Assembly (NCBI GenBank): GCA_044892525.1
Contig: CM097885.1
Location: forward strand, 19,036,001 to 19,100,000
Reading direction: 5' to 3'
From: Schmidtea polychroa
Taxonomy: Eukaryota
DNA: 64,000 nt
The notes under the pieces were generated by a model. That model saw only the letters and a program-made list of their open reading frames with translations, was not told the origin of the DNA and searched no databases. Shown here one piece after another: positions 1,441-26,295 of the stretch. The first letter of the stretch is position 1, and each line of letters starts with the position of its first letter. The translations under genes and the position numbers were made by a program.

Positions 1441-1772
1441 GATTTTTTGTTGATTTTATAGGAATATTTTAATTTTATCACGTTAAGTTTAAATTAGTTT
1501 ACCGCCATCGAATAACATTGCAAACTTTTACTGTGTTAATTTCAACTTTGAAGTTAACATTTACTATATTCATATAAAAAGAATGGAAATATTTCAAGTT
1601 CCAAGTTCAATAAAAAATAATTCTTGTCATTATATGTTGATTAAATTATAATTTCAACACACTGCAAATATCAACAATAAAGTGAAAGTTTTATTAACAA
1701 TTCTTTAAATCAATAATTATATTATTTAAACAAAGTTGATTTTAATTTTTGGCATTCATTAGTAAAATTAAT

Positions 1773-1850
<78 letters not shown>

Positions 1851-3614: not shown

Positions 3615-3770
<156 letters not shown>

Positions 3771-5021: not shown

Positions 5022-5218
5022 CGGTGTTTCTCAAACTATGGGTCGCGAAAGAATTTTTGGTGGGTCGCGATGACTAGAATAACTAGAGTTAAATAGAGTT
5101 ATTCTCATTAAATAAACATTTATTTTAAAATTAATCTTTGTCATGTGGGTCGCAATAAAATTTTTGGCATGAAATGTCAAAAATTTGGGTCGTGATCAAA
5201 ATAGTTTGAGAACCACTG
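5022..5218. mobile_element. hAT (Charlie-type) MITE, 197 bp
   Basis: TIRs CGGTGTTTCTCAAACTAT / ATAGTTTGAGAACCACTG, with a perfect 8-bp TSD ATTTAAGG (5014-5021, 5219-5226). Confidence 0.9.
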
Positions 5219-6208: not shown

Positions 6209-6240
<32 letters not shown>

Positions 6241-6379
6241 GAAAGAAGAGAAAATAATAATTGAAATATTCTGTGATAGGAAAACTAAAACTTCATATTA
6301 AATTTCATCATTACAATAGAAAATAACTTGGAAAAAAGTTCGACTTTCAGATTTAATTTGAATATCTTCTCAACTAGAT

Positions 6380-7416
6380 AATCATATAATTCATCAACAA
6401 TTTTCTCGCGCAGAAAATCAGATTCTAAATTGTTTGGCTGATCAGTTTAAATCAATTTAGAATTTTTGTTCATATAATTATTTTCGTTTACTAGGAAAAC
6501 TTTAATTTCAATAGCAAGAAAAAATATCGGAAGAAAAACAATAAAATGGTTTTTCTCAACAAAAGAATTCGCGTTTGTCATGGGGCAATTATCGTGAAAT
6601 AATCGCTGGCTGAGTAGTTGATTCTGGGCGGCAATCTCATGCAAGTCAATTCGACTGACATTTCTGAAATTTAACGCATGAAACTATTTCAATCGTTTTT
6701 TAATTTTTCACCGAGGTTTAAATAAGAATTCAAACAAGTTTATTAATTTTGTGTACATTTATTTTGCATTCATTTCATTAAATGAGCCATTTAGTAAGAA
6801 ATTTTGAATCTTTACAATTTTCCTTGATAAATTCAAAGTTTTCAATTACCAAGAAGAAGCACGGGCATTTAAAGAATACTACGACAATTGTTAAACTTTT
6901 TCGATCATATCCTAATCACATCAGAATCACAAATGAAAAACATGCTATAATAACATATTTCAAATCTCCTTACGTTATTATTATAATAATGAAAGAACTG
7001 AAACACACTGGCCTTCAAATTCGTATAGCACATAAATCTTGGATATTGAGAAAAGCTCTGGCAAATAAAAAATAAAACAATTGCACAATTGAAAATTGCC
7101 AGACACCGAAGGATATGTGCTTTCAAAAAAACATTCTCTTTTGCGTAATGCAATGTATGCAAAGAAATATACATTGAAAGTACGCCCATGACCTTGCGCC
7201 AAAGGGATAAACAAAATCTAGATCATAGTGGAAAATCCTCGGTATAACAAACATTTCCAACAAAGTCAACCAAGAAAGGAAAGAAAAAATATTTCAATCA
7301 AAATCTTAGCCAATGAAAACATCCAAAACAATGTCAAATTTAAGGAAGCAACTCTCATTATAAACAAACGGCCAACAATCACATTAAAGAAGAGATCAAT
7401 GAAATCATCATTTTGA
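6380..7416 (+). mobile_element. Degenerate Penelope-like retroelement, 3' part (GIY-YIG endonuclease region)
   Basis: CNVCKEIYIESTPMTLRQR (7149-7205) and IKILANE...FKEATLIINKRPTI resemble the Penelope GIY-YIG domain. The left boundary is uncertain. Confidence 0.6.
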
Positions 7417-7997: not shown

Positions 7998-8538
7998 GTG
8001 GGTTGTGGTTGTAATACAATGAAATTGCGAATCTGGGATACAGCAGATCAAGCAAGATTTGGAACTAAAACCTCGTCTTATTCCAGAGGAGCTCATGGAA
8101 TTATTGTTGTGGTTGATGTTACCGATCAAGATTCGTTTAACAATGTTAAAAATTGGCTTAATGAAATCGATAGATATGCAAAAGGAAAAGTTCCCGATAA
8201 AATGATTGTGAAGAGTTCAGCTACGAGATTGTTTAAGATTATTGAAAGTACTGGAGGTATTATGATTAGTATGATCCCTGATTGTCGATCTCAAGTTTAT
8301 CGTGCACAAATGGAAGCAGCTCGATTCAAATCCAAAATTGGACATAAAATGCCTTGGGATATAATATGTTCTTCTATTGCGGATATTAGTCATTCAATTT
8401 CGTTCAATTTCATTCAATTTCGTCCAAGGATAGCATTATCTCATGACATTGAAATGGACAAACTGTTATTATTCAAAACTGCAACTGATCCACGCGGCCC
8501 TGTAGAGGTGGATAATAAAATTGTTCTTGGACTTATTC

Positions 8539-8543
<5 letters not shown>
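7998..8543 (+). pseudogene. Chimeric intronless ORF: Rab1-like fragment (~8019-8180) fused in frame to a proteasome alpha subunit (PSMA6-like) fragment (~8181-8393)
   Basis: [13 protein letters not shown]...[36 protein letters not shown] is the Rab1 core with a degenerate DTAGQ. KVPDK...RLFKI...[27 protein letters not shown] matches PSMA6. Confidence 0.85.
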
Positions 8544-8607
<64 letters not shown>

Positions 8608-8899
8608 TTTAATAATATTTCTAAATCCAACTTGAAAATTATTTTTACATATCCAATGTCAGAATTAAAATAATTATTTAATCTCAAAAAATGTAATTAT
8701 TATTAGACAGAAAGATATCAATTTTAGTATTAAAGTTTACGTTAAATTTATTATTTTTTCCAATTTTGAGAAAGAAATTTGAATTCAAAAATTTAATAAC
8801 ATTCAATATATAATTTGAGGAGAATATGCCAATATGTTTATGGAAAATTCCTGTTACAGTTAACTGCTTAAAAATTATAATGCAAATAAAGAAATATTT

Positions 8900-9210
8900 A
8901 TATATATGTAAACTTCTGAAAGATGTAAATTTTGATCAGATCTTCCATCGTTTTGAGAAGAATGCTTGGAAATCATTCAAACTTGTGGCTGAGAATATTT
9001 TGGGAAACAAGAAAGCACATAACTATGAAGCACTTGTCACGAGATTTCTTTCTCATTTGGACTTCTTCCCTGATAGGTATGGTACAGTTAGCGATGGATA
9101 TGATGAATGTTTCCATTAGGACATATCGACGATGAAAAACTGGTATCGATGTTAACAGACTACTGCTGGACCATGGTGAGAGATGTCCCAGATGTCGAGT
9201 AAACGTGACA
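8900..9210 (+). pseudogene. DNA transposase C-terminal relic, probably Chapaev3/CMC-like
   Basis: EKNAWKSFKLVAENILGNKKAHNY...FLSHLDFFPDRYGTVSDGYDECFH*DISTM matches a widespread transposase motif (HSHLDFFP.NLGAVSDEHGERFHQDI). The superfamily assignment is from memory. Confidence 0.6.
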
Positions 9211-9263
9211 GTCATAGAAAAAAAGAATGGTTTAATGTAGAGGAATTTTGTTTTAACCAAATA

Positions 9264-9333
<70 letters not shown>

Positions 9334-10510
9334 TTTATCATTCTCATGAACTATATTCTGGTAATGTTCATTTTCAATAATTTACGTTTCAAACTTCACT
9401 AAATATAATAAAAACAATCTTTGCCAATATTTTCAATACTAGAGCTAATTAATCTTTTTAAAAGACATTTTTGTAGTCACCACATTAGTATACATAAAAT
9501 AAATGCAAGAAACTAAACATATTTTAAAATATTCTTGACCAATGTAATTATAATTGATGGTTATATTGTAGTTGGTCAATGATTATTACACTGGCAATCA
9601 CTGATCTGACTTCAAGCGTGTTTTAATAACAAGAATGACTAATACCAATGACGTAAAACTTTATTCATTATCACATTTGATTACAACAAATTCAAAGATA
9701 CGAATTTTCAAAACACCTCAAATGTTTCAAATGCTTATTACAAGAATAGCACAACAATGAAAATACTTTAAGAATACAACCACTTGGCTGCAACCACTGC
9801 CTGTAACGGCCCATTAGTAAAAGTGATCTGGTTGCTTTTTACCTGATTTGAGTTTCTCAAACTACCTCTAATTTATTAATTCAATAAGCAAGTTTCTTCC
9901 AACTGTTCCTGATTCTCAACAATTTGTTTTTAAATTTGATTTTAAACTTGTAAAAATATAAAGTTTTTCAAAATTGATAAAATATTTGTTAGCAAGTACA
10001 AATTTATTTGTAACTGTCATGACCAGCATATTTAAAAAAGACTTGAAATTCTACAAAAGAGGACAGGATAAATTAATTCGATTCGTTATGAATCGCTTCA
10101 AAAGGAAAAGTGCAAAGATGATACCAATGACCAGGAACATTTGACAACTTTTGGAAAAAACACTTTTTTGATTACATATTTGTTTGGATATAAATTGTTT
10201 TGTAGAATTTAGAATAAAATTTGAATAAAATTTATTTAATAAATTTATAATTTAAATAAAATATTCTCCCAAAATATCATTTGGAGTTTGATAAATTTTT
10301 TTCTTCATGACTATAAGAAAATTTGTAATCTTTGTTTGAATTGAATTAATAGTTCAAACAATTTGAATAATCTTGATTTCAATTAATTTCTTTTATTTTT
10401 ATAAATAAATTGAATTATTTGATTTAGCAATAATAAAATTTTAATACTTTCATTTTTATAAATTGGCAAAATTAATATGTTATTGTTTATTTAAATAACT
10501 TTTAATTATA

Positions 10511-10516
10511 TATCCT
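10511..10516 (+). other. Target site duplication TATCCT (left copy; right copy at 25681-25686)
   Basis: Identical hexamer directly abutting both termini in direct orientation. Confidence 0.92.
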
Positions 10517-10874
10517 AGTAGGTAGTTAGTGGCTTACGGCAGCAATAGGGGGGGGGGGTAAAAAATGTTGCAAACTTTTGATTGCATAACTTTTTCCGTA
10601 GACATTTTTTGATTACATAATTGTTGCCGTAATGCCCAATGTTTTCTGGGATTTTAAATACAAATTTTTTTTTTTTTTTTTTTTTTTTTCAATAAACAAG
10701 CCAAGGATAAATATTATTTGGGTGGGTCTCCTTGGTCCTGAGAATTTCAATAGAAAAAGGTAGTCTTCAATAAAAAAGCATGGATTTTTCACACTATAGT
10801 GAGGGGATCTTCTTGGTCATGAGAATTTCAATAGAAAAGGTGGTTTACATTAAAAAACGCATAGTAAATTTTTA

Positions 10875-11480
10875 AAATAAAGTAAATTATGGGTCTAAAA
10901 TTTAAAAATAAAGTAAATGATGGGTCTAAAAATTTAAGTAAATCAAGGTTCAGATTTATTTTTGAAATAAAGTAAATTATGGTCTAAATAAGTAAATTAT
11001 GGGCTAAGATTTTTCAATTAAAGTAAATAATGGTTCTAAAAAATTAAATTACAGTAAATTATGGTCCAAATTTTTAAATTAAAGTAAATTATGGTTCTTA
11101 AAAATTAAATTAAAGTAAATTATGGTCAAAATTTTTGAATTACAGTCCAAAAATTTAAATTAAAGTAAATTATGATCCAAATTTTTAAATTAAAGTAAAT
11201 AATGGTTCTAAAAAATTAAATTAAAGTAAATAATGGTCCAAATATTTTAAATTACAGTAAATAATGGTTCTAAAAATTAAATTACAGTAAAAAATGGTCA
11301 AAAATTTTAAAATTAAAGTAAATTATGGTTCTAAAAATTAAATTAAAGTTAATTAAGGTCCAAATTTTAAAATTAAATAATCAATGGTAAAAAAAAATTT
11401 AAATTAAAGTTAAATAAGTAAATTAAAGTAATAATTTTTAAATAAGTAAATTAAAGTAATGTAATAAGTAAATTAAAGTA
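10875..11480 (+). repeat. Subterminal tandem array of ~30-bp units (AAATTAAAGTAAATTATGGTYCWAAA); mirror at ~24675-25320
   Basis: More than 15 visibly repeated units inside the element ends. Confidence 0.85.
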
Positions 11481-11667
11481 AGATTTTTAAATTTATTAAC
11501 AAAAATAGAAGGTGTTTGAGAATTGAAATTTTTTAATGGAAATTTTAATGAATTATTTTTTAAGTAATTTTTAATAGAAATTTTTATGAATAATTTTCAA
11601 TGGTAATTTTTAATGGAAATTTTAATAGAATAATTTTTAAGATAATTTTTAATGAAAATTTTTATGA

Positions 11668-11750
<83 letters not shown>

Positions 11751-11937
11751 TAATATTAATAATATATCAACCAAATACTATACAACACATAAAAAATTAA
11801 CTAAACACATAAAAATAACTAGACACATAACAAAACATATAAACATTAACTAAACACATAAAAATGAACTAGACACATAACAAACATAAAAATTTACCAA
11901 ATAACAAATGTAAAGATATAAAATTTATTCAATAAAA

Positions 11938-14937
11938 TTAGTCCTCATCGGACAAAATAACGTCATCGATATCGATGTCATCTTCTCCAAAATCTTCATT
12001 TAATTCTTCCTCATCTTCTCCATCATTTTCTCCAACATTTTCTGAAACATTTTCTGCAACAATTTCTCCAACATTTTCTCCAATATTTAATTCACTTAAT
12101 CTTACATGCCCATATGCAAGACTAGTATTTTGCCCCACCCAAACCCTTTTGTCATCTTTGTTAGTTAGTGCTATTTTTGTGTTTTTAATTGTAAAAATTT
12201 GATGATTTTTGCTTGTTATTTTAGTCTGAGGAACCGAAAAAATCTGGTTAGTGTTATAACAATCCAGGTATGACTGATGTTTTATGTCACTACCTTTCAA
12301 TGTTACACCTTTAGCCTTTTTTGTTTCCTCATCACCCAACAAGCTATAACATTTAGGTCTAAGAAAAACCCACTCCTTATATTTAAGACCTTTATTCTCG
12401 TCTTTGAACTTTCCAATGACTGAATCAAGGTTCTTACTATATAAGGAATGACAACTATTGTAATTGGAAGTATCCAATAAATTATCTCGAACCATTGCAG
12501 GTAAAAGAACCTCAAGTTTGCAGTTAATGACTTCGAGGAAAAAAGAATCTGTATCACCTGCAACGATATTAATTTTACAATTAAACTCATTGCGAAATGA
12601 TTCCAGATCCTTATATTGCAATTCATACATTCTAAGTTTAGATAGATCAAGTACAGATTGACCAATGTAACTCGGTCTATCTAAACATATAGAATCGGAA
12701 TTCAATAGTGCTGCAATTAAATTATCTGCTATTTTAATAGATTTTTTAAAAGTCGGTTTTGACGAATATTTAACTAATTTACCGGCAGTTGTACAAAGAC
12801 GAAGATTCATTCTTCTCTTTAAATTTTCAACTGTTTTGCCGTATAAACTATTATTTAGCAATTTATAATAATTTTTATCTAAGCTATTTACGCTTTTTGA
12901 TCTTAATTCGGTATTTGTATCTATATATTTTTTAAAAATTGGTGATTGCTTAAATCTTACACCCCTATTTACACGTGTTACTTTAACACCAAGTTCCAAA
13001 TATAATTTTAATAATCTCCAATGAATAACATAATTAGATTTTGGAAGATGAGTTAATAATAATTTTTCAACCTTAGACCCAGCAGGTTTCATTTTTTCAG
13101 CAGCTACAGGGAAATCATCCAACTTATCATGAAGCTCAGAAGGAATTACAAGATCAACTTCAAGTGTGTATCCATAAGACAAAGATTCAAGATTTAAATT
13201 CCTACATTCATCCATTATTTTATCAAATCCATCAAGAACCCAACAAAATTCGCCACAAGGTAATGATTGACTTAAAGCCCAGCCATAAAGATTATTAATA
13301 TCTATATATAGTAACTCAGTGTTCTCGTCGGTTTTTACGTAATGCTTATTCACAAAAGTAAGACCGCCTCTTATTCCACCCTCATAAAAGCTAAACATTT
13401 CGTTTTCAGTTATGAGTTCAATTGGTTCATTTAAAGACATTAATGCAGAAGACCAAGACATGCCTGGAATTCCGAAATAATTCAATGGTTCCAATCTATT
13501 GTGAGCAATGGATTTCAACCGAAACTGATGAAAGAAATCAGCCAAAAGAAAACAATCAAGTTTTAGGTAGATCATCATATAATCTAATAAAGTTACGCAA
13601 TTAGTTTCTACCCAAATCTCCTGAGCTTTTTCATACTCAAGCTCAGTGACACCCTCCCAGATTGGTGGTAATTCATAAGTAGTTTGGAGAATATCTAAAG
13701 AAGTGGCGAAATTATAAGGGAAGATTCCTTTTTCACTTACTATGGTGCCAGAAAAAGCAGAATTAGTAAAAGGCAAAGAATTCAAAGTTTTGACTGCTTT
13801 AGCCAAAGAATCATTGACAAATTGATACGAATCAATGAATCTTAGGCTAATTTTACCTAAATGAGCAATCAAAGCTATAAATTTTTCCGTAGTTATTGGG
13901 ATGCACCCTAAATTCCAATTTTTAAATTTATTTAATCCATATTTAAGTATATGGTGCATATCGTATCCCTTCAAGTTGTGAAATACGATAGGCAAAATTT
14001 TATTTATTTTTCTATTTACGTTACATGTGCTACAAGCTGCACCCAAGTATTTCCCCATAAAATGATCGTGATCTCTAACAGGATCTACGATAGATTTCAA
14101 ACAAAGATAACAAACCGTTGAATTAATGAATTGTTGTTGCTCAATTTTCGTTAATTTAATCATTGGTTTCCTACCCATTTTATAATAAAAAGGAAGAACC
14201 TTATTTAATGCTATATCCTCTATAGCACTTAAAAAACTCTCGACGCAATCTAAACCTATGAACTGCTGATAAGATTTAGATCCGTCAAAGTTATTTACTA
14301 GTAAAAGACCAGCAGATATTGGCATGTGTCGCTGAAAATGATCATTATCAGAAGGTAAAATAGCCTCAAAATCGGCATAAACTACAAAAGGAGGAGTTAC
14401 TGTTTTCGACCAGTCAGTAAACTGTAAGAATTTATTTTGAGGGAAAGTATAAAGAGTTGTTCCTAATTGATTACGTTTGCATAATATTTCATGTTTTTCT
14501 AGTGCGTTTCTATTATTAAACCCATTCAAACACCGATGGCACCATAATGAACGTATGCGTGTAGGACAAGTAGTGTTGATACCACAATTCAATAACCTAT
14601 TTAAATTGCTTATAGCAACGTAATGGAAATTGTTCCCTTTATTTAATAATAGTAAATTAATTACAGTTCCATTTAAAACTTTGGAACGATGTATAATGTC
14701 TAAATGTGGGTGTTTTAAAACGTAATTATCTATTAATTGTTTGTTATTGTCATAAGAAAAAACGTTAATTATTAAACCAGGATTTTTGGCCTCGAATTTT
14801 CTAATATCTTTTAATTTCATGGGTAAGTCCAATGGATTATATATTAATTCAGATAAATTATAACTGGATGTCCTATTTCTAGCATAACTACTAACCTCAT
14901 CATATTTTAAAATAGCTAAAATGCTATATAAAAACAT
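11938..14937 (-). CDS. polB: Protein-primed family B DNA polymerase (Polinton/Maverick type) with Zn finger, EndoVII-like domain and acidic tail; left copy
   Basis: ExoI VVYADFE, ExoII FHNLKGYD, ExoIII YLKLDC, KGIFPY, motif A YIDINNLYG, motif B KLLNNSLYGK, motif C GDTDS, LRPKCY/KAKGV. Also CYLC..RDHDH..G...GAACSTCN (EndoVII-like) and CHRC..H...C. Confidence 0.95.
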   Translation of the reverse strand: MFLYSILAILKYDEVSSYARNRTSSYNLSELIYNPLDLPMKLKDIRKFEAKNPGLIINVFSYDNNKQLIDNYVLKHPHLDIIHRSKVLNGTVINLLLLNKGNNFHYVAISNLNRLLNCGINTTCPTRIRSLWCHRCLNGFNNRNALEKHEILCKRNQLGTTLYTFPQNKFLQFTDWSKTVTPPFVVYADFEAILPSDNDHFQRHMPISAGLLLVNNFDGSKSYQQFIGLDCVESFLSAIEDIALNKVLPFYYKMGRKPMIKLTKIEQQQFINSTVCYLCLKSIVDPVRDHDHFMGKYLGAACSTCNVNRKINKILPIVFHNLKGYDMHHILKYGLNKFKNWNLGCIPITTEKFIALIAHLGKISLRFIDSYQFVNDSLAKAVKTLNSLPFTNSAFSGTIVSEKGIFPYNFATSLDILQTTYELPPIWEGVTELEYEKAQEIWVETNCVTLLDYMMIYLKLDCFLLADFFHQFRLKSIAHNRLEPLNYFGIPGMSWSSALMSLNEPIELITENEMFSFYEGGIRGGLTFVNKHYVKTDENTELLYIDINNLYGWALSQSLPCGEFCWVLDGFDKIMDECRNLNLESLSYGYTLEVDLVIPSELHDKLDDFPVAAEKMKPAGSKVEKLLLTHLPKSNYVIHWRLLKLYLELGVKVTRVNRGVRFKQSPIFKKYIDTNTELRSKSVNSLDKNYYKLLNNSLYGKTVENLKRRMNLRLCTTAGKLVKYSSKPTFKKSIKIADNLIAALLNSDSICLDRPSYIGQSVLDLSKLRMYELQYKDLESFRNEFNCKINIVAGDTDSFFLEVINCKLEVLLPAMVRDNLLDTSNYNSCHSLYSKNLDSVIGKFKDENKGLKYKEWVFLRPKCYSLLGDEETKKAKGVTLKGSDIKHQSYLDCYNTNQIFSVPQTKITSKNHQIFTIKNTKIALTNKDDKRVWVGQNTSLAYGHVRLSELNIGENVGEIVAENVSENVGENDGEDEEELNEDFGEDDIDIDDVILSDED

Positions 14938-15560
14938 GAATCATCGGTGTTTTTTATATTAATTAAACAATATTTATTTTTTAGATAAGTAGGTAGTTCA
15001 ATGAAACTCCTACCACTTAATCTACTTAGCCTACTTATCTTTGTTATGGTGAAGTGAATTTCTGTTATTTTTTTTATGATCCAGCTACTTCCTAACTCTG
15101 TGATATTACTTATTTTCTCGTTTAGTTCCCTAATGCCTTCGTCAAAAAATGATGCAGTTAAAGGCTTTGCATAATTTGAGATATTATTAACCTTTATTTC
15201 CCCGTCTTTTTCAAATTCGATTGTTATTCCGAATTGAATTTTGACGGAGCCTAATTCGTTAATAATATCTCGTAATTTTTTTATTAGTTGTTCAGGAAAT
15301 ATTATTTCTTTTATATTTAAGTCGCTTGTATTTAAGCTTAATATTTGATGGGTACCTCTTAGATCTTTTTGTATTATTGGAACATTTCCACCTATTTGTA
15401 TTATATTTAATCCATCCCAAGAGTCAAGGGAAATATTATCTAATCCGACCTGGGATTCAACAACCAATCCATCATGGGATTCGACAACCAATCCATCATT
15501 GGATTCCACAAAAGGCAATCCGACCTGGGATTCAAAAGAAGAAGTATCTAATTTAATTTT
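14916..15560 (-). CDS. N-terminal part of the Polinton PolB (separated from the main ORF by a -1 frameshift); left copy with extra VESxxGL repeats
   Basis: Ends GRSFIELPTYLKNKYCLINIKNTDDSCF, which continues as FLYSILA in the PolB frame. This matches the typical Polinton PolB N-terminal motif (GSSYIELP..L.NK..IINIKN.D..CF.WSILA). Confidence 0.8.
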   Translation of the reverse strand, partial: KIKLDTSSFESQVGLPFVESNDGLVVESHDGLVVESQVGLDNISLDSWDGLNIIQIGGNVPIIQKDLRGTHQILSLNTSDLNIKEIIFPEQLIKKLRDIINELGSVKIQFGITIEFEKDGEIKVNNISNYAKPLTASFFDEGIRELNEKISNITELGSSWIIKKITEIHFTITKISRLSRLSGRSFIELPTYLKNKYCLINIKNTDDSCFYIAF

Positions 15561-16278
15561 TTAATTTTTATTATTTTTTTCTATAGTTGAGGGTCTTTTA
15601 AAAACACTATCTTTTTTAAAATTAAACCTATCTAAATGATTTTTATGTTTATTATAAAAAACGCTATATGTTACGGGGTAACTAGTCTTACATACGGGAC
15701 ATATAAAATAAGTTTTATTATAATATTTTTTTGTGTAATAATTCTCCATTATAGAATGGCAATTATTATCATGTTCTTTCGATGAACAATAATTTGGGTA
15801 AAGTATACCTATAAAATAAAAATTTAATAAAAAAAATATAATTTAAATGAAATATTTTAGTAAATGTTTACGCAAAAATTTGCAAATTATTATTATTTTA
15901 CAAATTTTATTTACTAAAAAATAAAAATTTACTAAATTAAAAATATTAACATTTACTTAAATAAAAAATTATATTAAATTTCCTTTAAATTATAAAAAGT
16001 AATCAATACTTACATTGTAAATTTTCATTTCGATTTATTGACACATTGACATAATTTTTTTCTTTATTCGTATTACCTAAATTATTAATTAATTAAATCA
16101 ATAAATTAAAAATTATGTTTACTTTTTCTTTTCAAATTTCCTTTAATCTTAGATTTTAAATTGTCTTCATTAATATTATCTAAATTAATTAATAAATTAA
16201 TTAATAAATAAATTAAAATTTACCAAATTTCTGAATTTTTTCTCGGACATTCATAACGTTTTCTATTAAAGAATTCAT
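15561..16278 (-). CDS. Mirror copy of the 4-exon Cys/His gene; exons 16278-16224, 16179-16123, 16076-16014, 15808-15561
   Basis: Reverse complement of 19956-20673 with the same splice sites. Confidence 0.7.
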
Positions 16279-16890
16279 TTTTAAAGGTTAACTATTTGTT
16301 AAATGTGACTAATGATTGATTATTGTTTATAGATTATTATTGTTTATAGATTATTATTGTTTATAGATTATTATTATTTTTCATAGGAACAAATTCTAAC
16401 CAATCAAAATCAAGGAAGGGTAGGAAAAAATTAATTTATTTTAAAACACATTTTGACGCTAAAGTTGACTTATTTAACATTTTCATAATAATTTAATAAA
16501 AATAATGTGATGAACCCACAAAGTAATATCATTTTTCATCAAATTGCAAAACAGTAATAACGTTTTCATAAAATTGTAACAAAGTAATAACATATTTCAG
16601 ATAAATTTTCAACAGTTGTAAAATATTTAAACAAATTGTAACAAGATTAGAAAATATGACAACAAAGTAGTAACATATTTCAGAAAATTTCAACAAAGTT
16701 GTAAAATATTTATCAAATTGTAACTAAAATAATAAAAATATTGCAACAAAGTAATAAAATAATAATGGTAATTAAGACAAATCAATACATTATTTCGAAG
16801 ATGGACAACAAATTAAAAAGAATATTGTAACTAAAATAATAAAAATATTGCAACAAAGTAATAAAATAATACAACATTTTAAACTCTAGA

Positions 16891-17500
16891 TCAATCCATT
16901 TTATAGAAAATTAAATTTTATCTATATAATATATGAATAAATATCCAAGGAAATTACGTTAACGTATAATAAATACAAATTTATCGTAAAAACATGTGTG
17001 TATTACACACAAAACAAGATACATAATTTCTAATCAATCCATTTTATAGAAAATTAAATTTTATCTATATATTATATGAATAAAATCCTAAGAAAATTAC
17101 GTTAACTGTATAATAAATACAAATTTATCGTAAAAACATGTGTGTATTACACACAACATACGAGACATAATTTCTAATCAATCCATTTTATAGAAAATTA
17201 AATTTTATTTATATATCATATGAATAAAATCCTAAGAAAATTACGTTAACTGTATGAAAAATACAAATTTATCGTAAAAACATGTGTGTATTACACACAA
17301 CATACGAGACATAATTTTTAATCAAGCTATTTTATAGAAAATTAAATTTTATCTATATATTAAATGAATAAAAATCCAAGAAAATAACGTTAAGCGCGCG
17401 AAAAAATACAAATTTATTGTAAAAACATGTGTGCATTACACACAAAGCACCAAACTGAAATTGTAATTGCGCCGTGTTGTAGAAAATTAAATTCTGCCTA
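16891..17500 (+). repeat. About 4 tandem 143-144-bp units, each with an internal near-palindrome TGTGTGTATTACACACA; mirror at ~18720-19330
   Basis: Units start at 16891, 17034, 17178 and 17322. Confidence 0.85.
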
Positions 17501-17635
17501 TACATTGTTACACTTAAATTTCGATCAGACCTGTGAAAAGAGACATAAAAGAGAAAGAACAGTAGAGTAGTATGATTGGGGCCCGCCTGGCCAGGAGCCC
17601 GCTCGGCCACATATACCCTCTCCCCCCCCCCCCCG

Positions 17636-18582
17636 TGTGTAAAATAATGTTAATTATAATATTTATATATCAGTATATAGATTTTGCACTGGGCTTTAAA
17701 ATAAGTGTTTGATTAATAAATTCGGATGATGGAAACATTACTTTTGGGAAGAAAAAAAGTAGGTCACCGCTGGACCAATTAATTTTAAAAAAAAATACGT
17801 AATAGTTATAAAAATATTAAGCATCGTTCTTAAAATATTAGACATCGTTCTAAAATTATGACGTAATCATTCTAAAAATATTAGGCATCGTTCTAAAAGT
17901 ATGACGTAATCATTCTAAAAATAAGAGGCATCGTTCTAAAAATATGATGTAATCGTTCTAAAAATATTAGACATCGTTCTAAAAATATTAGGCGTTGATT
18001 ACGTAATAGTTCTAAAAATATGATGAGTCATTGTCTTTGTTCTAAAAATGTGATGAGTCATCGTATGATAAAAATCTATATCTCATTAGAAAGTTCTTGC
18101 ACAGAGCTTTAAAATAAGCTATCGATCAATATAATATGTTGTCGGGAACATTAATCTTTGAGATGAAAAAAGTAGGAGCCCGCTGGGCCAATTAATAATA
18201 TTTTGACAAATAATAATAATTTAACTTTGAAAAGATGGTGGTCAATAATTGTTAATAACATTAAAACTATTAAAGATATATAAGATACCTATAGCTCATT
18301 CGAAAGGTCTTGGACTGAGCTTTAAGATGAGGTATCGTCCAATAAAATCTGATGGCGGGAACATTAACTTTTGGGATGAAAAAAAGTGTGAGCCCGCTGG
18401 GCCACTAATAATATGGCATCGTTCTAAAAATATGTGGCATCGATTACGTAATAGTTCTAAAAATATGTGGCACCGCTCTAAAAATATTAGGCATCGATTA
18501 CGTAATAGTTCTAAAAATATTAGGCATCGATTACGTAATAGTTCTAAAAATATGTGGCATCGTTCTAAAAAAAATTTTTCCC
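17636..18582 (+). repeat. Unique central spacer made of CATCGTTCTAAAAATAT/TACGTAATAG tandem repeats plus three copies of a ~120-bp module
   Basis: Not mirrored. The module (..GAAAG..GAGCTTTAA..GGGAACATTAA..GAAAAAAAGT..GCCCGCTGGGCCA) lies at ~17665-17780, ~18078-18195 and ~18290-18410. Confidence 0.8.
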
Positions 18583-19804
18583 CGGGGGGGGGGGGAGAGG
18601 GTATATGTGGCCGAGCGGGCTCCTGGCCAGGCGGGCCCCAATCATACTACTCTACTGTTCTTTCTCTTTTATGTCTCTTTTCACAGGTCTGATCGAAATT
18701 TAAGTGTAACAATGTATAGGCAGAATTTAATTTTCTACAACACGGCGCAATTACAATTTCAGTTTGGTGCTTTGTGTGTAATGCACACATGTTTTTACAA
18801 TAAATTTGTATTTTTTCGCGCGCTTAACGTTATTTTCTTGGATTTTTATTCATTTAATATATAGATAAAATTTAATTTTCTATAAAATAGCTTGATTAAA
18901 AATTATGTCTCGTATGTTGTGTGTAATACACACATGTTTTTACGATAAATTTGTATTTTTCATACAGTTAACGTAATTTTCTTAGGATTTTATTCATATG
19001 ATATATAAATAAAATTTAATTTTCTATAAAATGGATTGATTAGAAATTATGTCTCGTATGTTGTGTGTAATACACACATGTTTTTACGATAAATTTGTAT
19101 TTATTATACAGTTAACGTAATTTTCTTAGGATTTTATTCATATAATATATAGATAAAATTTAATTTTCTATAAAATGGATTGATTAGAAATTATGTATCT
19201 TGTTTTGTGTGTAATACACACATGTTTTTACGATAAATTTGTATTTATTATACGTTAACGTAATTTCCTTGGATATTTATTCATATATTATATAGATAAA
19301 ATTTAATTTTCTATAAAATGGATTGATCTAGAGTTTAAAATGTTGTATTATTTTATTACTTTGTTGCAATATTTTTATTATTTTAGTTACAATATTCTTT
19401 TTAATTTGTTGTCCATCTTCGAAATAATGTATTGATTTGTCTTAATTACCATTATTATTTTATTACTTTGTTGCAATATTTTTATTATTTTAGTTACAAT
19501 TTGATAAATATTTTACAACTTTGTTGAAATTTTCTGAAATATGTTACTACTTTGTTGTAATATTTTCTAATCTTGTTACAATTTGTTTAAATATTTTACA
19601 ACTGTTGAAAATTTATCTGAAATATGTTATTACTTTGTTACAATTTTATGAAAACGTTATTACTGTTTTGCAATTTGATGAAAAATGATATTACTTTGTG
19701 GGTTCATCACATTATTTTTATTAAATTATTATGAAAATGTTAAATAAGTCAACTTTAGCGTCAAAATGTGTTTTAAAATAAATTAATTTTTTCCTACCCT
19801 TCCT

Positions 19805-19930
19805 TGATTTTGATTGGTTAGAATTTGTTCCTATGAAAAATAATAATAATCTATAAACAATAATAATCTATAAACAATAATAATCTATAAACAATAATAA
19901 TCTATAAACAATAATCAATCATTAGTCACA
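19805..19930 (+). promoter_or_regulatory. Putative Pol II promoter of the arm transcription unit (mirror at ~16305-16410)
   Basis: Reverse CCAAT box (GATTGGTT) and tandem 17-bp AATAATAATCTATAAAC units with a TATAAA core just upstream of the ATG at 19956. Confidence 0.35.
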
Positions 19931-19955
19931 TTTAACAAATAGTTAACCTTTAAAA

Positions 19956-20673
19956 ATGAATTCTTTAATAGAAAACGTTATGAATGTCCGAGAAAAAATT
20001 CAGAAATTTGGTAAATTTTAATTTATTTATTAATTAATTTATTAATTAATTTAGATAATATTAATGAAGACAATTTAAAATCTAAGATTAAAGGAAATTT
20101 GAAAAGAAAAAGTAAACATAATTTTTAATTTATTGATTTAATTAATTAATAATTTAGGTAATACGAATAAAGAAAAAAATTATGTCAATGTGTCAATAAA
20201 TCGAAATGAAAATTTACAATGTAAGTATTGATTACTTTTTATAATTTAAAGGAAATTTAATATAATTTTTTATTTAAGTAAATGTTAATATTTTTAATTT
20301 AGTAAATTTTTATTTTTTAGTAAATAAAATTTGTAAAATAATAATAATTTGCAAATTTTTGCGTAAACATTTACTAAAATATTTCATTTAAATTATATTT
20401 TTTTTATTAAATTTTTATTTTATAGGTATACTTTACCCAAATTATTGTTCATCGAAAGAACATGATAATAATTGCCATTCTATAATGGAGAATTATTACA
20501 CAAAAAAATATTATAATAAAACTTATTTTATATGTCCCGTATGTAAGACTAGTTACCCCGTAACATATAGCGTTTTTTATAATAAACATAAAAATCATTT
20601 AGATAGGTTTAATTTTAAAAAAGATAGTGTTTTTAAAAGACCCTCAACTATAGAAAAAAATAATAAAAATTAA
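19956..20673 (+). CDS. Predicted 4-exon ~140-aa protein with Cys/His (Zn-finger-like) motifs; exons 19956-20010, 20055-20111, 20158-20220, 20426-20673
   Basis: Three GT..AG introns (44, 46 and 205 nt, all phase 1) join without stops into MNSLIENVMNVREKIQKFDNINEDNLKSKIKGNLKRKSNTNKEKNYVNVSINRNENLQCILYPNYCSSKEHDNNCHSIMENYY...CPVC...HKNH. This lands in frame with the 62-aa ORF. Confidence 0.7.
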
Positions 20674-21243
20674 AAAATTAAATTAGATACTTCTTCTTTT
20701 GAATCCCAGGTCGGATTAGATAATATTTCCCTTGACTCTTGGGATGGATTAAATATAATACAAATAGGTGGAAATGTTCCAATAATACAAAAAGATCTAA
20801 GAGGTACCCATCAAATATTAAGCTTAAATACAAGCGACTTAAATATAAAAGAAATAATATTTCCTGAACAACTAATAAAAAAATTACGAGATATTATTAA
20901 CGAATTAGGCTCCGTCAAAATTCAATTCGGAATAACAATCGAATTTGAAAAAGACGGGGAAATAAAGGTTAATAATATCTCAAATTATGCAAAGCCTTTA
21001 ACTGCATCATTTTTTGACGAAGGCATTAGGGAACTAAACGAGAAAATAAGTAATATCACAGAGTTAGGAAGTAGCTGGATCATAAAAAAAATAACAGAAA
21101 TTCACTTCACCATAACAAAGATAAGTAGGCTAAGTAGATTAAGTGGTAGGAGTTTCATTGAACTACCTACTTATCTAAAAAATAAATATTGTTTAATTAA
21201 TATAAAAAACACCGATGATTCATGTTTTTATATAGCATTTTAG
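20674..21243 (+). CDS. N-terminal part of the Polinton PolB; right copy (open frame without its own ATG, 25 codons shorter)
   Basis: Open frame KIKLDTSSFESQVGLDN...NTDDSCFYIAF*, mirror of 14916-15560. Confidence 0.75.
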   Translation, partial: KIKLDTSSFESQVGLDNISLDSWDGLNIIQIGGNVPIIQKDLRGTHQILSLNTSDLNIKEIIFPEQLIKKLRDIINELGSVKIQFGITIEFEKDGEIKVNNISNYAKPLTASFFDEGIRELNEKISNITELGSSWIIKKITEIHFTITKISRLSRLSGRSFIELPTYLKNKYCLINIKNTDDSCFYIAF

Positions 21244-24221
21244 CTATTTTAAAATATGATGAGGTTAGTAGTTATGCTAGAAATAGGACATCCAGTTATA
21301 ATTTATCTGAATTAATATATAATCCATTGGACTTACCCATGAAATTAAAAGATATTAGAAAATTCGAGGCCAAAAATCCTGGTTTAATAATTAACGTTTT
21401 TTCTTATGACAATAACAAACAATTAATAGATAATTACGTTTTAAAACACCCACATTTAGACATTATACATCGTTCCAAAGTTTTAAATGGAACTGTAATT
21501 AATTTACTATTATTAAATAAAGGGAACAATTTCCATTACGTTGCTATAAGCAATTTAAATAGGTTATTGAATTGTGGTATCAACACTACTTGTCCTACAC
21601 GCATACGTTCATTATGGTGCCATCGGTGTTTGAATGGGTTTAATAATAGAAACGCACTAGAAAAACATGAAATATTATGCAAACGTAATCAATTAGGAAC
21701 AACTCTTTATACTTTCCCTCAAAATAAATTCTTACAGTTTACTGACTGGTCGAAAACAGTAACTCCTCCTTTTGTAGTTTATGCCGATTTTGAGGCTATT
21801 TTACCTTCTGATAATGATCATTTTCAGCGACACATGCCAATATCTGCTGGTCTTTTACTAGTAAATAACTTTGACGGATCTAAATCTTATCAGCAGTTCA
21901 TAGGTTTAGATTGCGTCGAGAGTTTTTTAAGTGCTATAGAGGATATAGCATTAAATAAGGTTCTTCCTTTTTATTATAAAATGGGTAGGAAACCAATGAT
22001 TAAATTAACGAAAATTGAGCAACAACAATTCATTAATTCAACGGTTTGTTATCTTTGTTTGAAATCTATCGTAGATCCTGTTAGAGATCACGATCATTTT
22101 ATGGGGAAATACTTGGGTGCAGCTTGTAGCACATGTAACGTAAATAGAAAAATAAATAAAATTTTGCCTATCGTATTTCACAACTTGAAGGGATACGATA
22201 TGCACCATATACTTAAATATGGATTAAATAAATTTAAAAATTGGAATTTAGGGTGCATCCCAATAACTACGGAAAAATTTATAGCTTTGATTGCTCATTT
22301 AGGTAAAATTAGCCTAAGATTCATTGATTCGTATCAATTTGTCAATGATTCTTTGGCTAAAGCAGTCAAAACTTTGAATTCTTTGCCTTTTACTAATTCT
22401 GCTTTTTCTGGCACCATAGTAAGTGAAAAAGGAATCTTCCCTTATAATTTCGCCACTTCTTTAGATATTCTCCAAACTACTTATGAATTACCACCAATCT
22501 GGGAGGGTGTCACTGAGCTTGAGTATGAAAAAGCTCAGGAGATTTGGGTAGAAACTAATTGCGTAACTTTATTAGATTATATGATGATCTACCTAAAACT
22601 TGATTGTTTTCTTTTGGCTGATTTCTTTCATCAGTTTCGGTTGAAATCCATTGCTCACAATAGATTGGAACCATTGAATTATTTCGGAATTCCAGGCATG
22701 TCTTGGTCTTCTGCATTAATGTCTTTAAATGAACCAATTGAACTCATAACTGAAAACGAAATGTTTAGCTTTTATGAGGGTGGAATAAGAGGCGGTCTTA
22801 CTTTTGTGAATAAGCATTACGTAAAAACCGACGAGAACACTGAGTTACTATATATAGATATTAATAATCTTTATGGCTGGGCTTTAAGTCAATCATTACC
22901 TTGTGGCGAATTTTGTTGGGTTCTTGATGGATTTGATAAAATAATGGATGAATGTAGGAATTTAAATCTTGAATCTTTGTCTTATGGATACACACTTGAA
23001 GTTGATCTTGTAATTCCTTCTGAGCTTCATGATAAGTTGGATGATTTCCCTGTAGCTGCTGAAAAAATGAAACCTGCTGGGTCTAAGGTTGAAAAATTAT
23101 TATTAACTCATCTTCCAAAATCTAATTATGTTATTCATTGGAGATTATTAAAATTATATTTGGAACTTGGTGTTAAAGTAACACGTGTAAATAGGGGTGT
23201 AAGATTTAAGCAATCACCAATTTTTAAAAAATATATAGATACAAATACCGAATTAAGATCAAAAAGCGTAAATAGCTTAGATAAAAATTATTATAAATTG
23301 CTAAATAATAGTTTATACGGCAAAACAGTTGAAAATTTAAAGAGAAGAATGAATCTTCGTCTTTGTACAACTGCCGGTAAATTAGTTAAATATTCGTCAA
23401 AACCGACTTTTAAAAAATCTATTAAAATAGCAGATAATTTAATTGCAGCACTATTGAATTCCGATTCTATATGTTTAGATAGACCGAGTTACATTGGTCA
23501 ATCTGTACTTGATCTATCTAAACTTAGAATGTATGAATTGCAATATAAGGATCTGGAATCATTTCGCAATGAGTTTAATTGTAAAATTAATATCGTTGCA
23601 GGTGATACAGATTCTTTTTTCCTCGAAGTCATTAACTGCAAACTTGAGGTTCTTTTACCTGCAATGGTTCGAGATAATTTATTGGATACTTCCAATTACA
23701 ATAGTTGTCATTCCTTATATAGTAAGAACCTTGATTCAGTCATTGGAAAGTTCAAAGACGAGAATAAAGGTCTTAAATATAAGGAGTGGGTTTTTCTTAG
23801 ACCTAAATGTTATAGCTTGTTGGGTGATGAGGAAACAAAAAAGGCTAAAGGTGTAACATTGAAAGGTAGTGACATAAAACATCAGTCATACCTGGATTGT
23901 TATAACACTAACCAGATTTTTTCGGTTCCTCAGACTAAAATAACAAGCAAAAATCATCAAATTTTTACAATTAAAAACACAAAAATAGCACTAACTAACA
24001 AAGATGACAAAAGGGTTTGGGTGGGGCAAAATACTAGTCTTGCATATGGGCATGTAAGATTAAGTGAATTAAATATTGGAGAAAATGTTGGAGAAATTGT
24101 TGCAGAAAATGTTTCAGAAAATGTTGGAGAAAATGATGGAGAAGATGAGGAAGAATTAAATGAAGATTTTGGAGAAGATGACATCGATATCGATGACGTT
24201 ATTTTGTCCGATGAGGACTAA
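21222..24221 (+). CDS. polB: Protein-primed family B DNA polymerase; right copy, same 999-aa translation
   Basis: Same motifs, and the translation appears identical to 11938-14937. AATAAA follows the stop. Confidence 0.95.
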   Translation: MFLYSILAILKYDEVSSYARNRTSSYNLSELIYNPLDLPMKLKDIRKFEAKNPGLIINVFSYDNNKQLIDNYVLKHPHLDIIHRSKVLNGTVINLLLLNKGNNFHYVAISNLNRLLNCGINTTCPTRIRSLWCHRCLNGFNNRNALEKHEILCKRNQLGTTLYTFPQNKFLQFTDWSKTVTPPFVVYADFEAILPSDNDHFQRHMPISAGLLLVNNFDGSKSYQQFIGLDCVESFLSAIEDIALNKVLPFYYKMGRKPMIKLTKIEQQQFINSTVCYLCLKSIVDPVRDHDHFMGKYLGAACSTCNVNRKINKILPIVFHNLKGYDMHHILKYGLNKFKNWNLGCIPITTEKFIALIAHLGKISLRFIDSYQFVNDSLAKAVKTLNSLPFTNSAFSGTIVSEKGIFPYNFATSLDILQTTYELPPIWEGVTELEYEKAQEIWVETNCVTLLDYMMIYLKLDCFLLADFFHQFRLKSIAHNRLEPLNYFGIPGMSWSSALMSLNEPIELITENEMFSFYEGGIRGGLTFVNKHYVKTDENTELLYIDINNLYGWALSQSLPCGEFCWVLDGFDKIMDECRNLNLESLSYGYTLEVDLVIPSELHDKLDDFPVAAEKMKPAGSKVEKLLLTHLPKSNYVIHWRLLKLYLELGVKVTRVNRGVRFKQSPIFKKYIDTNTELRSKSVNSLDKNYYKLLNNSLYGKTVENLKRRMNLRLCTTAGKLVKYSSKPTFKKSIKIADNLIAALLNSDSICLDRPSYIGQSVLDLSKLRMYELQYKDLESFRNEFNCKINIVAGDTDSFFLEVINCKLEVLLPAMVRDNLLDTSNYNSCHSLYSKNLDSVIGKFKDENKGLKYKEWVFLRPKCYSLLGDEETKKAKGVTLKGSDIKHQSYLDCYNTNQIFSVPQTKITSKNHQIFTIKNTKIALTNKDDKRVWVGQNTSLAYGHVRLSELNIGENVGEIVAENVSENVGENDGEDEEELNEDFGEDDIDIDDVILSDED

Positions 24222-24408
24222 TTTTATTGAATAAATTTTATATCTTTACATTTGTTATTTGGTAAATTTTTATGTTTGTTATGTGTCTAGTTCATTTTTA
24301 TGTGTTTAGTTAATGTTTATATGTTTTGTTATGTGTCTAGTTATTTTTATGTGTTTAGTTAATTTTTTATGTGTTGTATAGTATTTGGTTGATATATTAT
24401 TAATATTA

Positions 24409-24488
<80 letters not shown>

Positions 24489-25497
24489 TCATAAAAATTT
24501 TCATTAAAAATTATCTTAAAAATTATTCTATTAAAATTTCCATTAAAAATTACCATTGAAAATTATTCATAAAAATTTCTATTAAAAATTACTTAAAAAA
24601 TAATTCATTAAAATTTCCATTAAAAAATTTCAATTCTCAAACACCTTCTATTTTTGTTAATAAATTTAAAAATCTTACTTTAATTTACTTATTACATTAC
24701 TTTAATTTACTTATTTAAAAATTATTACTTTAATTTACTTATTTAACTTTAATTTAAATTTTTTTTTACCATTGATTATTTAATTTTAAAATTTGGACCT
24801 TAATTAACTTTAATTTAATTTTTAGAACCATAATTTACTTTAATTTTAAAATTTTTGACCATTTTTTACTGTAATTTAATTTTTAGAACCATTATTTACT
24901 GTAATTTAAAATATTTGGACCATTATTTACTTTAATTTAATTTTTTAGAACCATTATTTACTTTAATTTAAAAATTTGGATCATAATTTACTTTAATTTA
25001 AATTTTTGGACTGTAATTCAAAAATTTTGACCATAATTTACTTTAATTTAATTTTTAAGAACCATAATTTACTTTAATTTAATTTTTAAGAACCATAATT
25101 TACTTTAATTTAAAAATTTGGACCATAATTTACTGTAATTTAATTTTTTAGAACCATTATTTACTTTAATTGAAAAATCTTAGCCCATAATTTACTTATT
25201 TAGACCATAATTTACTTTATTTCAAAAATAAATCTGAACCTTGATTTACTTAAATTTTTAGACCCATCATTTACTTTATTTTTAAATTTTAGACCCATAA
25301 TTTACTTTATTTTAAAAATTTACTATGCGTTTTTTAATGTAAACCACCTTTTCTATTGAAATTCTCATGACCAAGAAGATCCCCTCACTATAGTGTGAAA
25401 AATCCATGCTTTTTTATTGAAGACTACCTTTTTCTATTGAAATTCTCAGGACCAAGGAGACCCACCCAAATAATATTTATCCTTGGCTTGTTTATTG

Positions 25498-25528
<31 letters not shown>

Positions 25529-26295
25529 TATTTAAAATCCCAGAAAACATTGGGCATTACGGCAACAATTATGTAATCAAAAAATGTCTACGGAAAAAGT
25601 TATGCAATCAAAAGTTTGCAACATTTTTTACCCCCCCCCCCCCCCCCCCTATTGCTGCCGTAAGCCACTAACTACCTACTTATCCTAATGATTTAAATTA
25701 AATAATTTAAAATAATATTAATAATTATAAATTTTATTATAAAAATTATACAAGTAATTTTGTCAACACAAATGGATGCCATTGGTTATTTCCAAGTCGC
25801 AATTAAATGATTTGAGCAATGAAATCTCATTTCAATATTATAAGACATTGTCGGGCCAAGTAATTATGAAATATCATTATGAAATAAATTATATCAGTAA
25901 ATTGTTTCACTTTATATAGATTTTTTTTGATCATGATATTTAGTACATTTTCATTTTGAAAAAATAACAAATATTTTATTCTAAGCAACAAAAACGTTTG
26001 GATTTCCCCTTATTAAGCGTTATTCAAACAAAAAACACTTTATTAAAAGAAAGCCGAAAATTTTTGTTATGTCAAATTAAACCTTTGATTTTTTATCAAA
26101 ATGATAAGAGAAGTTGTTGAAATTTGTGGAAATGTATTATAAATAATAATGTGATTAATTGGTTCCTTGTTATTCAAAACAATATTTTGAGAAACATGGA
26201 GATTTTTAAAAAAAAGATTTTTAGAATTTATATTTTAAAATATATAACAATTGGTATATAAAAACAAAGGAGAATTCTTAAAACGTAATCCCAGG

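Follow-up and report, generated by a model that had tools for sequence, protein, structure and literature searches.

A palindromic element with a polymerase gene in each arm

The window analyzed here is a stretch of 64,000 nucleotides from Schmidtea polychroa (assembly GCA_044892525.1, contig CM097885.1, positions 19,036,001 to 19,100,000), located on a contig of 271.6 Mb in a strongly AT-rich genome of 781 Mb. Window positions 10517-25680 are occupied by a 15,164-bp palindromic element related to the Polinton/Maverick transposons, in which two inverted arms of 7,117 and 7,097 bp, making up 93.7% of the element, surround a 950-bp spacer. In element coordinates, blastn aligned the left arm (1-7117) with the right arm (8068-15164) at 99.1-99.2% identity, and the collinear inverted segments measured 3,790 nt (100% identical), 1,357 nt (98%), 863 nt (100%), 688 nt (99%), 462 nt (100%), and 142 nt (100%). 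The offsets between these segments consisted of indels in homopolymer or tandem-repeat tracts plus one 75-bp indel, and of nothing else. Given that the inverted repeat extends over 7 kb at 99% identity, an origin by chance is impossible. The element starts at 10517 with AGTAGGTAGTTAGTGG..., the exact reverse complement of which forms its end at 25680. It has AG...CT ends, and a perfect 6-bp target site duplication (TSD), TATCCT, abuts both of them. The features of the locus, including the open reading frames (ORFs), are as follows.

10511..10516: left copy of the TSD, TATCCT; the same hexamer lies directly outside both termini
10517..17633, minus strand: left arm, 7,117 bp; going inward, terminus, subterminal repeats, outward-facing polB, and non-coding inner region
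10517..10546, plus strand: terminal 30-mer, opening with AGTAGGTAGTTA, then a run of G and, farther in, a run of T
10862..11410: left subterminal array of ~31-bp tandem repeats; mirror array at ~24746-25321
11938..15749, minus strand: left polB region, transcribed toward the left terminus, ATG at 15749; 999-aa open ORF at 11938-14937 plus a broken N-terminal part
16821..17540: left inner-arm 144-bp tandem repeats; mirror copies at 18667-19243
17634..18583: spacer, unique, 950 bp, the centre of the palindrome; 126-nt units plus 21/43-bp repeats
18249-18692: 147-aa ORF in the spacer region, with no family match
18584..25680, plus strand: right arm, 7,097 bp, mirror of the left arm
20485..24221, plus strand: right polB region, transcribed toward the right terminus, ATG at 20485; 999-aa ORF at 21222-24221 plus a broken N-terminal part
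25681..25686: right copy of the TSD, TATCCT

The polB genes of both arms are read from the centre out toward the termini, and the 999-aa ORF in each arm matched the Pfam family DNA_pol_B_2 (E = 4.7e-31). Apart from polB, an overlapping-frame ORF inside it, and the 147-aa spacer ORF, the element contained no ORF of at least 100 aa. Genes for an integrase, an ATPase, a protease, or a capsid were absent from the element by ORF inspection, Pfam, and tblastn. When the ORFs of a canonical Polinton and of Polintons from IMG/VR were used as tblastn queries against a full palindromic copy, polB was the sole match; the same queries did detect the virion genes in the canonical element. An Rfam scan of the element gave no match.

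An earlier note, made from the letters of this DNA alone, had described arms of ~7.1 kb that make up about 94% of the element, AG...CT ends with a perfect 6-bp TSD, and the lack of an RVE integrase, ATPase, protease, and capsids, all of which were reproduced by the repeat search, blastn, and the gene searches above. Its view that the TSD marks both ends as products of one insertion event was likewise supported, and the spacer measured 950 bp by blastn instead of 947 bp. Its assignment of a whole pPolB unit to each arm, however, had to be given up: polB is broken alike in both arms of this copy, where codon 63 is a stop and a one-base break interrupts the frame near codon 274, whereas the intact ORF in other copies is 1,270 aa. 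In addition, the right arm is without 75 bp of the polB region that are present in the left arm. Under the standard code the polB frame is open, so that a ciliate genetic code, which was considered, is not needed.

A family of about 190 copies, normally palindromic

The genome was searched with the terminal 30-mer. With one mismatch allowed, 189 forward and 195 reverse matches were found, and the reversed control gave 0. Among the 96 termini listed on contig C1, 80 fell into 40 (+,-) pairs and 16 were solo; the pairs were 14.0-16.3 kb long in 21 cases, 11-14 kb in 11, below 11 kb in 4, and above 20 kb in 4. One solo terminus, sampled over 4 kb, began as a normal arm. A PolB search of the genome returned 46 scored matches, none of which had an internal stop and all of which were 100% identical after rounding. 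As many as 34 of them formed 17 (-,+) inverted pairs with starts 4.5-9.4 kb apart, and at least 3 of the 12 unpaired matches also fell within terminus pairs.

Copies were then sampled end to end, covering 10 distinct loci at both ends, 6 full copies, and 8 variant centres. Perfect 6-bp TSDs, all different (TATCCT, AGTGAT, TAATAA, AATATA, ATGATA, CATATA, GGCCAA, AAGTCG, and CACCCT), occurred at 9 of the 10 loci, and all copies examined had AG...CT termini. The six full copies were 14,289-15,164 bp long, and in the five whose arms were measured these were 98.6-99.5% identical. Spacers of five copies (950, 911, 990, 312, and 906 bp) were homologous to one another; identity was ~96-98% for C1_276 and C2_244, 87-89% for C2_845, and 98% over the remaining 170 bp for C3_1116. 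The shared homologous spacer indicates a single founding event, after which the family spread in palindromic form. Thus, a family of ~190 copies exists in which the palindrome is the normal form, and a lone palindromic copy beside ordinary relatives, which the earlier note had named as the finding that would speak against a new class, is not what the genome holds. The sequences of the copies mark the family as young and high-copy.

At the tenth locus, C2:84538855-84554184, the TSD CAAGAT is separated from the right terminus by 3 extra bases (ACT). These amount to one more terminal trinucleotide and would fit a slip in stepping-back protein-primed initiation, in a single case. Two pairs of copies resembled each other beyond the element. 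The flanks of C26:115021-132274 are the reverse complement of those of C2:24404528-24421791, and the arms are near-identical; these copies are probably one locus assembled twice (a haplotig or duplicate) and were counted as one. Similarly, C1:132350135-132365502 and C1:132912997-132928299, 563 kb apart, have the same flank and an identical arm (0 differences), which suggests a segmental or assembly duplication and not two insertions.

The PolB protein and selection on its gene

A search of 5.8 billion proteins, with 8,000 candidates scored, retrieved 1,477 relatives of PolB at E ≤ 0.001. The best of these were 57% identical and lay on metagenome contigs, some relatives in the 45-57% range being on contigs of 13-32 kb, and animal genes, e.g., from Mytilus, were ~32% identical. 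Across 25 aligned relatives, no change was seen in the exonuclease (Exo I-III) and polymerase (Pol A-C) motifs, in a C2H2 finger, or in a nuclease-like Cys/His insert, whose invariant residues are C547, C550, H561, H563, C576, and N577. This insert gave a weak match to Pfam Endonuclease_7 that was below the cut-off (E = 0.013). No match was found in a PDB sequence search with PolB, nor in a Foldseek search against the PDB at E ≤ 0.001.

The N-terminal half of PolB was modelled by AlphaFold with a mean predicted local distance difference test score (pLDDT) of 64.9; the score was mostly above 90 in blocks 251-330 and 351-380, with a dip at 331-350. Residues 251-382 of the model matched OTU (deubiquitinase or protease) domains in 22 of the 50 rows listed (VIA-align), at middling Z scores of 4.6-7.6, and C272 and H376 in this region were invariant. 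By its predicted fold and its putative catalytic Cys and His, this segment would be an OTU-like cysteine protease domain. The frame break of the window copy coincides with the Cys motif of the OTU-like region (around C272). Upstream, the compact segment 131-239 resembled the little finger, a polymerase-associated DNA-binding domain, of Y-family polymerases in 10 of the 50 rows listed (Z 5.5-7.7). This likeness is too weak to build on; if real, the segment could belong to a terminal-protein or DNA-end-binding module.

An alignment-based scan of IMG/VR found relatives with ~26-40% PolB identity at 29 loci, all of them ordinary multi-gene genomes. Terminal repeats, 237-552 bp long, were seen in 4 of the 29. 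Pfam, applied to four loci, detected an rve integrase in all four, an A32-type ATPase in three, a double-jelly-roll capsid in two, and a protease in one, as well as an Endonuclease_7 match in the PolB of three. The Endonuclease-VII-like insert also aligned in the PolB of a canonical Polinton residing in the same genome (see below). Since the PolBs of integrase-encoding relatives have the nuclease-like insert, it is ancestral to this PolB clade and not a replacement integrase. Single-protein scans with PolB found one distant locus in metagenome contigs and none in viral contigs.

Selection was examined in 17 arms of 11 elements, which held 27 synonymous and 12 non-synonymous variants over 763 and 3,047 sites, respectively. 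The ratio of non-synonymous to synonymous rates (dN/dS) was thus ~0.11, or ~0.25 when one clustered haplotype was left out, and stop-free frames of at least 1,293 codons were present in 13 of the 46 scored copies. These variant counts show that PolB has been under purifying selection and mattered for the lineages that spread. In one subfamily (C1:27.66 Mb and C3:17.57 Mb), 19 substitutions, 17 of them synonymous, were clustered within codons 79-301 (~670 bp), and the remainder of polB was nearly identical. Such clustering points to recombination with, or conversion from, a different polB lineage.

The two arms of an element evolve in concert

Over the 3.8-kb ORF, the arms of one element differed at 0-3 positions (mean 1.3), whereas arms of different elements differed at 12.9 positions on average and at 2 at least. 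When 12 arms were paired at random, only 3 of 20,000 pairings were equally similar. Private substitutions, an 18-bp deletion, the window frame break, and a 718-bp deletion were each present in both arms of an element, and the 718-bp deletion occurred in both arms at all 3 loci sampled from a 13.3-kb subfamily. Faithful copying would let the arms diverge as separate lineages; as this was not seen, one arm must have been repeatedly copied from the other.

Canonical Polintons in the same genome share the terminal bases

Canonical Polintons, the candidate helpers, were abundant in the genome. An integrase query gave 123 matches listed (118 candidates scored of 10,566), among which 23 equal-score matches had open frames of 346 aa, and a double-jelly-roll (DJR) capsid query gave 98 scored matches from 2,995 first-look candidates, mostly in open frames. 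A canonical, apparently complete Polinton of 15,048 bp was delimited at C3:8632970-8648017, with terminal inverted repeats (TIRs) of 1.4 kb, the TSD ACAGCC, and ORFs for a 1,303-aa PolB, an integrase, an ATPase, a protease-like protein, and a capsid-like protein. Its polB adjoins one TIR and reads toward the nearer terminus, with ~1.5 kb from the stop codon to the element end; the palindromic copies have 1.42 kb there. The PolBs of the two families are 62% identical over 1,122 aa (57% for the best protein-database match). Given that the layout of terminus, ~1.4 kb of subterminal repeats, and polB is like this canonical end, and that tblastn found polB only, the arm corresponds to the PolB-proximal end of a Polinton.

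The terminus of the canonical element opens with AGTAGGTAGTTA, i.e., the first 12 nt of the palindromic family. This 12-mer followed by a non-G base occurred at 251 + 246 sites in the genome, versus 65 + 74 in the control, and pairs of it spaced by 14.6-15.0 kb enclosed integrase matches with intact frames (e.g., C1:26860275-26875305, 63269909-63284938, 63755606-63770591, and 101951701-101966341). Because the 12 terminal nucleotides and the 6-bp TSD are shared and intact integrases reside in the same genome, integration in trans by a helper integrase is the best reading. The earlier note had proposed a search for an autonomous partner sharing the termini; the canonical family matches it as far as the first 12 nt, and a partner with the full 30-nt terminus was not found, with 2 of the 4 long terminus pairs on C1 partly examined. 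A pattern of AGTAGGTAGTTAGTGG followed by a non-C base was tried as the mark of a partner family and rejected, as it gave 27 scattered sites and one pair only.

The canonical Polinton is itself nested in a Polinton of a different family (C3:8631001-8659000), with capsid-like, integrase, and ATPase ORFs on both flanks, and each of its TIRs holds a 157-aa ORF. The outer element contains 31-bp repeats that are ~80% similar to those of the subterminal array in the palindromes. Moreover, among three short derivatives sampled, one element of 5.3 kb (C1:113132351-113137876) with canonical-family termini, AGTAGGTAGTTAT, and the TSD AGTACT was also a long-arm palindrome, with 2.45-kb arms at 97.6% identity around a 290-bp spacer; its outer ~600 bp alone match the canonical TIR. 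The Polintons of this genome may therefore give rise to palindromic derivatives repeatedly.

Two variant copies turn around at short inverted repeats

Among the eight variant centres, two copies were near-perfect short palindromes of 6,873 and 7,403 bp, with the TSDs CATATA and GGCCAA and unpaired centres of 16 and 20 nt. Their turnaround points are exactly the ends of short inverted repeats that the full-length sequence already contains, one of 8 bp around a 16-nt loop and one of 7 bp around a 5-nt loop flanked by TTAA. Two further variant copies had loops of 277-286 and 827 nt, and one variant subfamily had symmetric deletions in both arms. The founding junction itself is unreadable, as any founding repeat is now part of the arms. 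In one report on phi29-type strand displacement in vitro (PMC1855051), more than 85% of the chimeras were inverted and more than 70% were primed at complementarities of 2-21 nt.

Proposed origin and rival explanations

Taken as a whole, the most probable account in our view is that a Polinton end folded back once and became a polymerase-only satellite replicon and transposon family, which re-forms hairpins. A protein-primed, strand-displacing polymerase that had started at the polB-proximal end would have snapped back on its own product, giving a molecule in which polB is flanked by identical ends, each serving replication and integration. Such molecules would be replicated by their own PolB or by that of sister copies; the window copy, being PolB-defective, would have to rely on the latter. 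They would be integrated in trans by the integrase of co-resident Polintons, which would recognise the shared terminal bases. As pure conjecture, helper capsids could also package them; the modal length of ~15 kb equals the canonical genome length. The displaced single strand would fold into a 7-kb hairpin, copying or repair inside the hairpin would keep one arm identical to the other, and shorter palindromes would result where the strand folded back at other short inverted repeats, so that one intermediate would explain both the concerted arms and the occasional shorter forms. The family would in effect be a defective-interfering-like satellite replicon of Polintons turned into transposons. 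A bolder version, which we put forward only tentatively, is that of a minimal 'ori-polB-ori' replicon living as a giant hairpin, with one arm regenerated in each cycle, replicating with the polymerase that it encodes, and parasitising the integrase and perhaps the capsids of Polintons. The earlier note had thought of a snap-back genome integrated by a helper integrase; the PolB-proximal Polinton arm and the integrase-bearing relatives with 12 shared nucleotides agree with that idea, but the element is not a one-off defective genome.

Several observations weigh against the fold-back account. No extrachromosomal, hairpin, or protein-capped form was met with, the contigs of the public runs being too short to show one. 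Defective copies have spread: the stop at codon 63 was found in 6 arms of 4 of the 11 elements, the 718-bp deletion, which includes the start codon, at no fewer than 3 loci, and the window frame break is shared with a copy at C1:139.4 Mb. As PolB-defective variants have spread, PolB is dispensable in cis and can evidently be supplied in trans, to judge from these alleles. Ordinary deletions account for 3 of the 8 variant copies examined, asymmetric at C1:17.30 Mb and C3:138.9 Mb and confined to the spacer at C3:111.6 Mb. The short palindromes do not prove replicative fold-back: in a palindrome, short inverted repeats also exist as direct repeats across the centre, deletion and snap-back give the same junction, and sequence alone cannot separate the two routes. 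The concert of the arms could stem from chromosomal gene conversion. Finally, the terminal identity to the integrase-encoding family ends after nt 12, an autonomous element with the full 30-nt terminus was not found (2 of the 4 long C1 pairs were partly examined), and none of the 29 IMG/VR relatives was palindromic or polB-only in architecture.

A rival account has only chromosomal dynamics at work: a non-autonomous derivative with very long TIRs, mobilised by the enzymes of helpers, would carry polB as a passenger that is still undecayed, its closely spaced arms would be homogenized by gene conversion, and the short symmetric forms would arise in situ by hairpin-guided slippage or by deletion at microhomologies, with no hairpin cycle. 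Palindrome arms in other systems are well known to undergo gene conversion, the deletion route to the short palindromes together with the asymmetric and spacer-only deletions is at home in this setting, as is the spread of PolB-defective variants, and in a family so young that its copies round to 100% identity, an undecayed polB is a weak sign of function. A dN/dS of ~0.11, however, is unexpected for a passenger gene, and it is the replication gene alone, and nothing else, that has been retained. Furthermore, the breakpoints of 2 of the 8 variant copies are mirror-symmetric within ~30 bp across 7-kb arms, which is unlikely for independent deletion ends, and a 7-kb hairpin, hard to extrude in chromosomal replication, would form automatically on a displaced single strand. 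We regard a purely chromosomal history as unlikely, though a serious competitor of the fold-back account. Much less credit is due to a class that integrates by itself, whether by means of the Endonuclease-VII-like (His-Me finger) insert or by some other activity of PolB. The lack of an integrase and the conserved Cys/His insert would suit it, but the same insert occurs in PolBs that are accompanied by an rve integrase (3 of 4 IMG/VR loci) and in the co-resident canonical PolB, and the 6-bp TSD, the AG...CT ends, and the 12-nt terminus held in common with the integrase family are the signature of Polinton integrase. The distinct integrase-less palindromic class that the earlier note had offered as its other option survives as a palindromic family of ~190 copies with polB under purifying selection, and is not supported with respect to self-integration, the insert being ancestral. 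An assembly artefact or a single local rearrangement, such as a fold-back read or a local inverted duplication, can practically be set aside. Some long-read libraries are known to produce artefactual palindromes, and the family contigs from public sequencing runs were too short to span the arms (≤406 nt among those listed, shorter than the arm-spacer-arm span); yet these runs, from 3 studies, do contain the family sequence including the spacer, the ~190 copies lie within chromosome-scale contigs, 9 of 10 distinct loci have perfect and different TSDs, and subfamilies with distinct centres recur at several loci.

Comparison with known systems

The palindromic family and Polintons/Mavericks have a pPolB of the same clade (62% amino acid identity) with OTU-like, zinc-finger, and Endonuclease-VII-like modules common to both, a polB reading toward the nearer terminus, AG...CT ends, the first 12 nt, a 6-bp TSD, and a length of ~15 kb. 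Unlike Polintons, the palindromic element has no integrase, capsid, ATPase, or protease, its 7.1-kb inverted repeat holds the whole polB, compared with TIRs of 1.4 kb in the canonical element and 240-550 bp in IMG/VR, its terminus differs after nt 12, and its arms evolve in concert. It is thus not an autonomous Polinton by definition: PolB and the AG...CT/TSD features are there, and the integrase and virion genes are not. The 12 terminal nucleotides shared with an integrase-encoding family would instead place it among non-autonomous Polinton derivatives. The literature searched, a body in which Repbase reports and subscription journals were not included, contained no account of a Polinton derivative that is palindromic or polB-only. 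The nematode Polintons of one preprint have TIRs of 100-1,500 bp, and the 52-nt terminal palindromes given for virophages in a 2026 preprint are different from the palindromy of the element. Polintons have also been named as a piRNA-targeted class.

Incomplete particles of adenovirus contain snap-back (inverted-duplication) defective genomes of a protein-primed linear virus. The palindromic element has the same makeup, with one genome end present twice, inverted, and a short unique centre (spacers 312-990 bp) between the two copies. With such genomes and with phi29 inverted chimeras it has in common the inverted duplication of one end, junctions at short complementarities (here those of the two short palindromes, which deletion could also give), and, as we would expect here, a dependence on intact relatives for the missing functions. 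Defective viral genomes are transient by-products, whereas the palindromic family keeps its polymerase gene under purifying selection and is integrated in the germ line with TSDs in ~190 copies. Foldback (FB) transposons of Drosophila and other long-inverted-repeat transposons likewise have very long inverted arms with tandem arrays, a short centre, and arm lengths that vary among copies. In Drosophila FB, however, the arms are non-coding repeat arrays and the TSD is 9 bp; the arms of the palindromic family carry polB and the TSD is 6 bp, so that it does not belong to FB.

In the formation of the ciliate rDNA palindrome, which starts from a short inverted repeat close to the end of a DNA molecule, and in origin-dependent inverted-repeat amplification (ODIRA), a model that reportedly involves hairpin-capped intermediates, a 3' end folds at a short inverted repeat and is extended into a large palindrome with a small loop, as would be the case here. 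Those are events of host chromosomes, whereas the substrate and the products are mobile in the present case. The Bidnaviridae have a Polinton-type PolB and linear genomes of ~6.5 kb with inverted terminal repeats. A 6,543-bp contig in IMG/VR with 237-bp TIRs and a 1,115-aa PolB (26% identity over the polymerase core) was recovered as a distant relative. As small, PolB-centred linear genomes with TIRs, bidnaviruses resemble the palindromic element, but they carry other genes and are not palindromic.

Implications

We know of no experiment that demonstrates self-copying of Polintons by the protein-primed polymerase they encode, as the term 'self-synthesising transposon' implies. A young, polymerase-only family of ~190 copies with purifying selection on polB provides, to date, nature's cleanest argument for a role of the polymerase in spread, and its two identical ends and single gene make a simple substrate for testing the self-synthesis idea. 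The family would also be a case of a defective-interfering-like genome that became a stable, heritable transposon family, and it would show a route by which very long coding inverted repeats originate and are maintained. If the hairpin replicon were true, it would be a heritable, evolving defective-interfering satellite of an endogenous virus and would demonstrate, in nature, that Polintons are replicated by PolB. For the host, hundreds of 15-kb perfect palindromes are potential fragile sites in the genome, and repeat annotation would mis-split the elements into two inverted 'polB fragments'.

Other observations

The long terminus pairs on C1 were considered as the autonomous form of the family and rejected. 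The interiors of two of the four, partly examined, contained no Polinton genes, and the pairs represent nested or composite insertions, with reverse transcriptase ORFs in the 26-kb pair. Inside the latter, at C1:209700100-209712300, two RVT_1 ORFs (864 and 787 aa) lie in inverted orientation together with mirrored 174-aa ORFs, so that this retroelement is itself arranged head to head. Elsewhere in the window, positions 60001-62000 had a GC content of 0.33, compared with ~0.22 window-wide, and an AT skew of -0.31 to -0.32.

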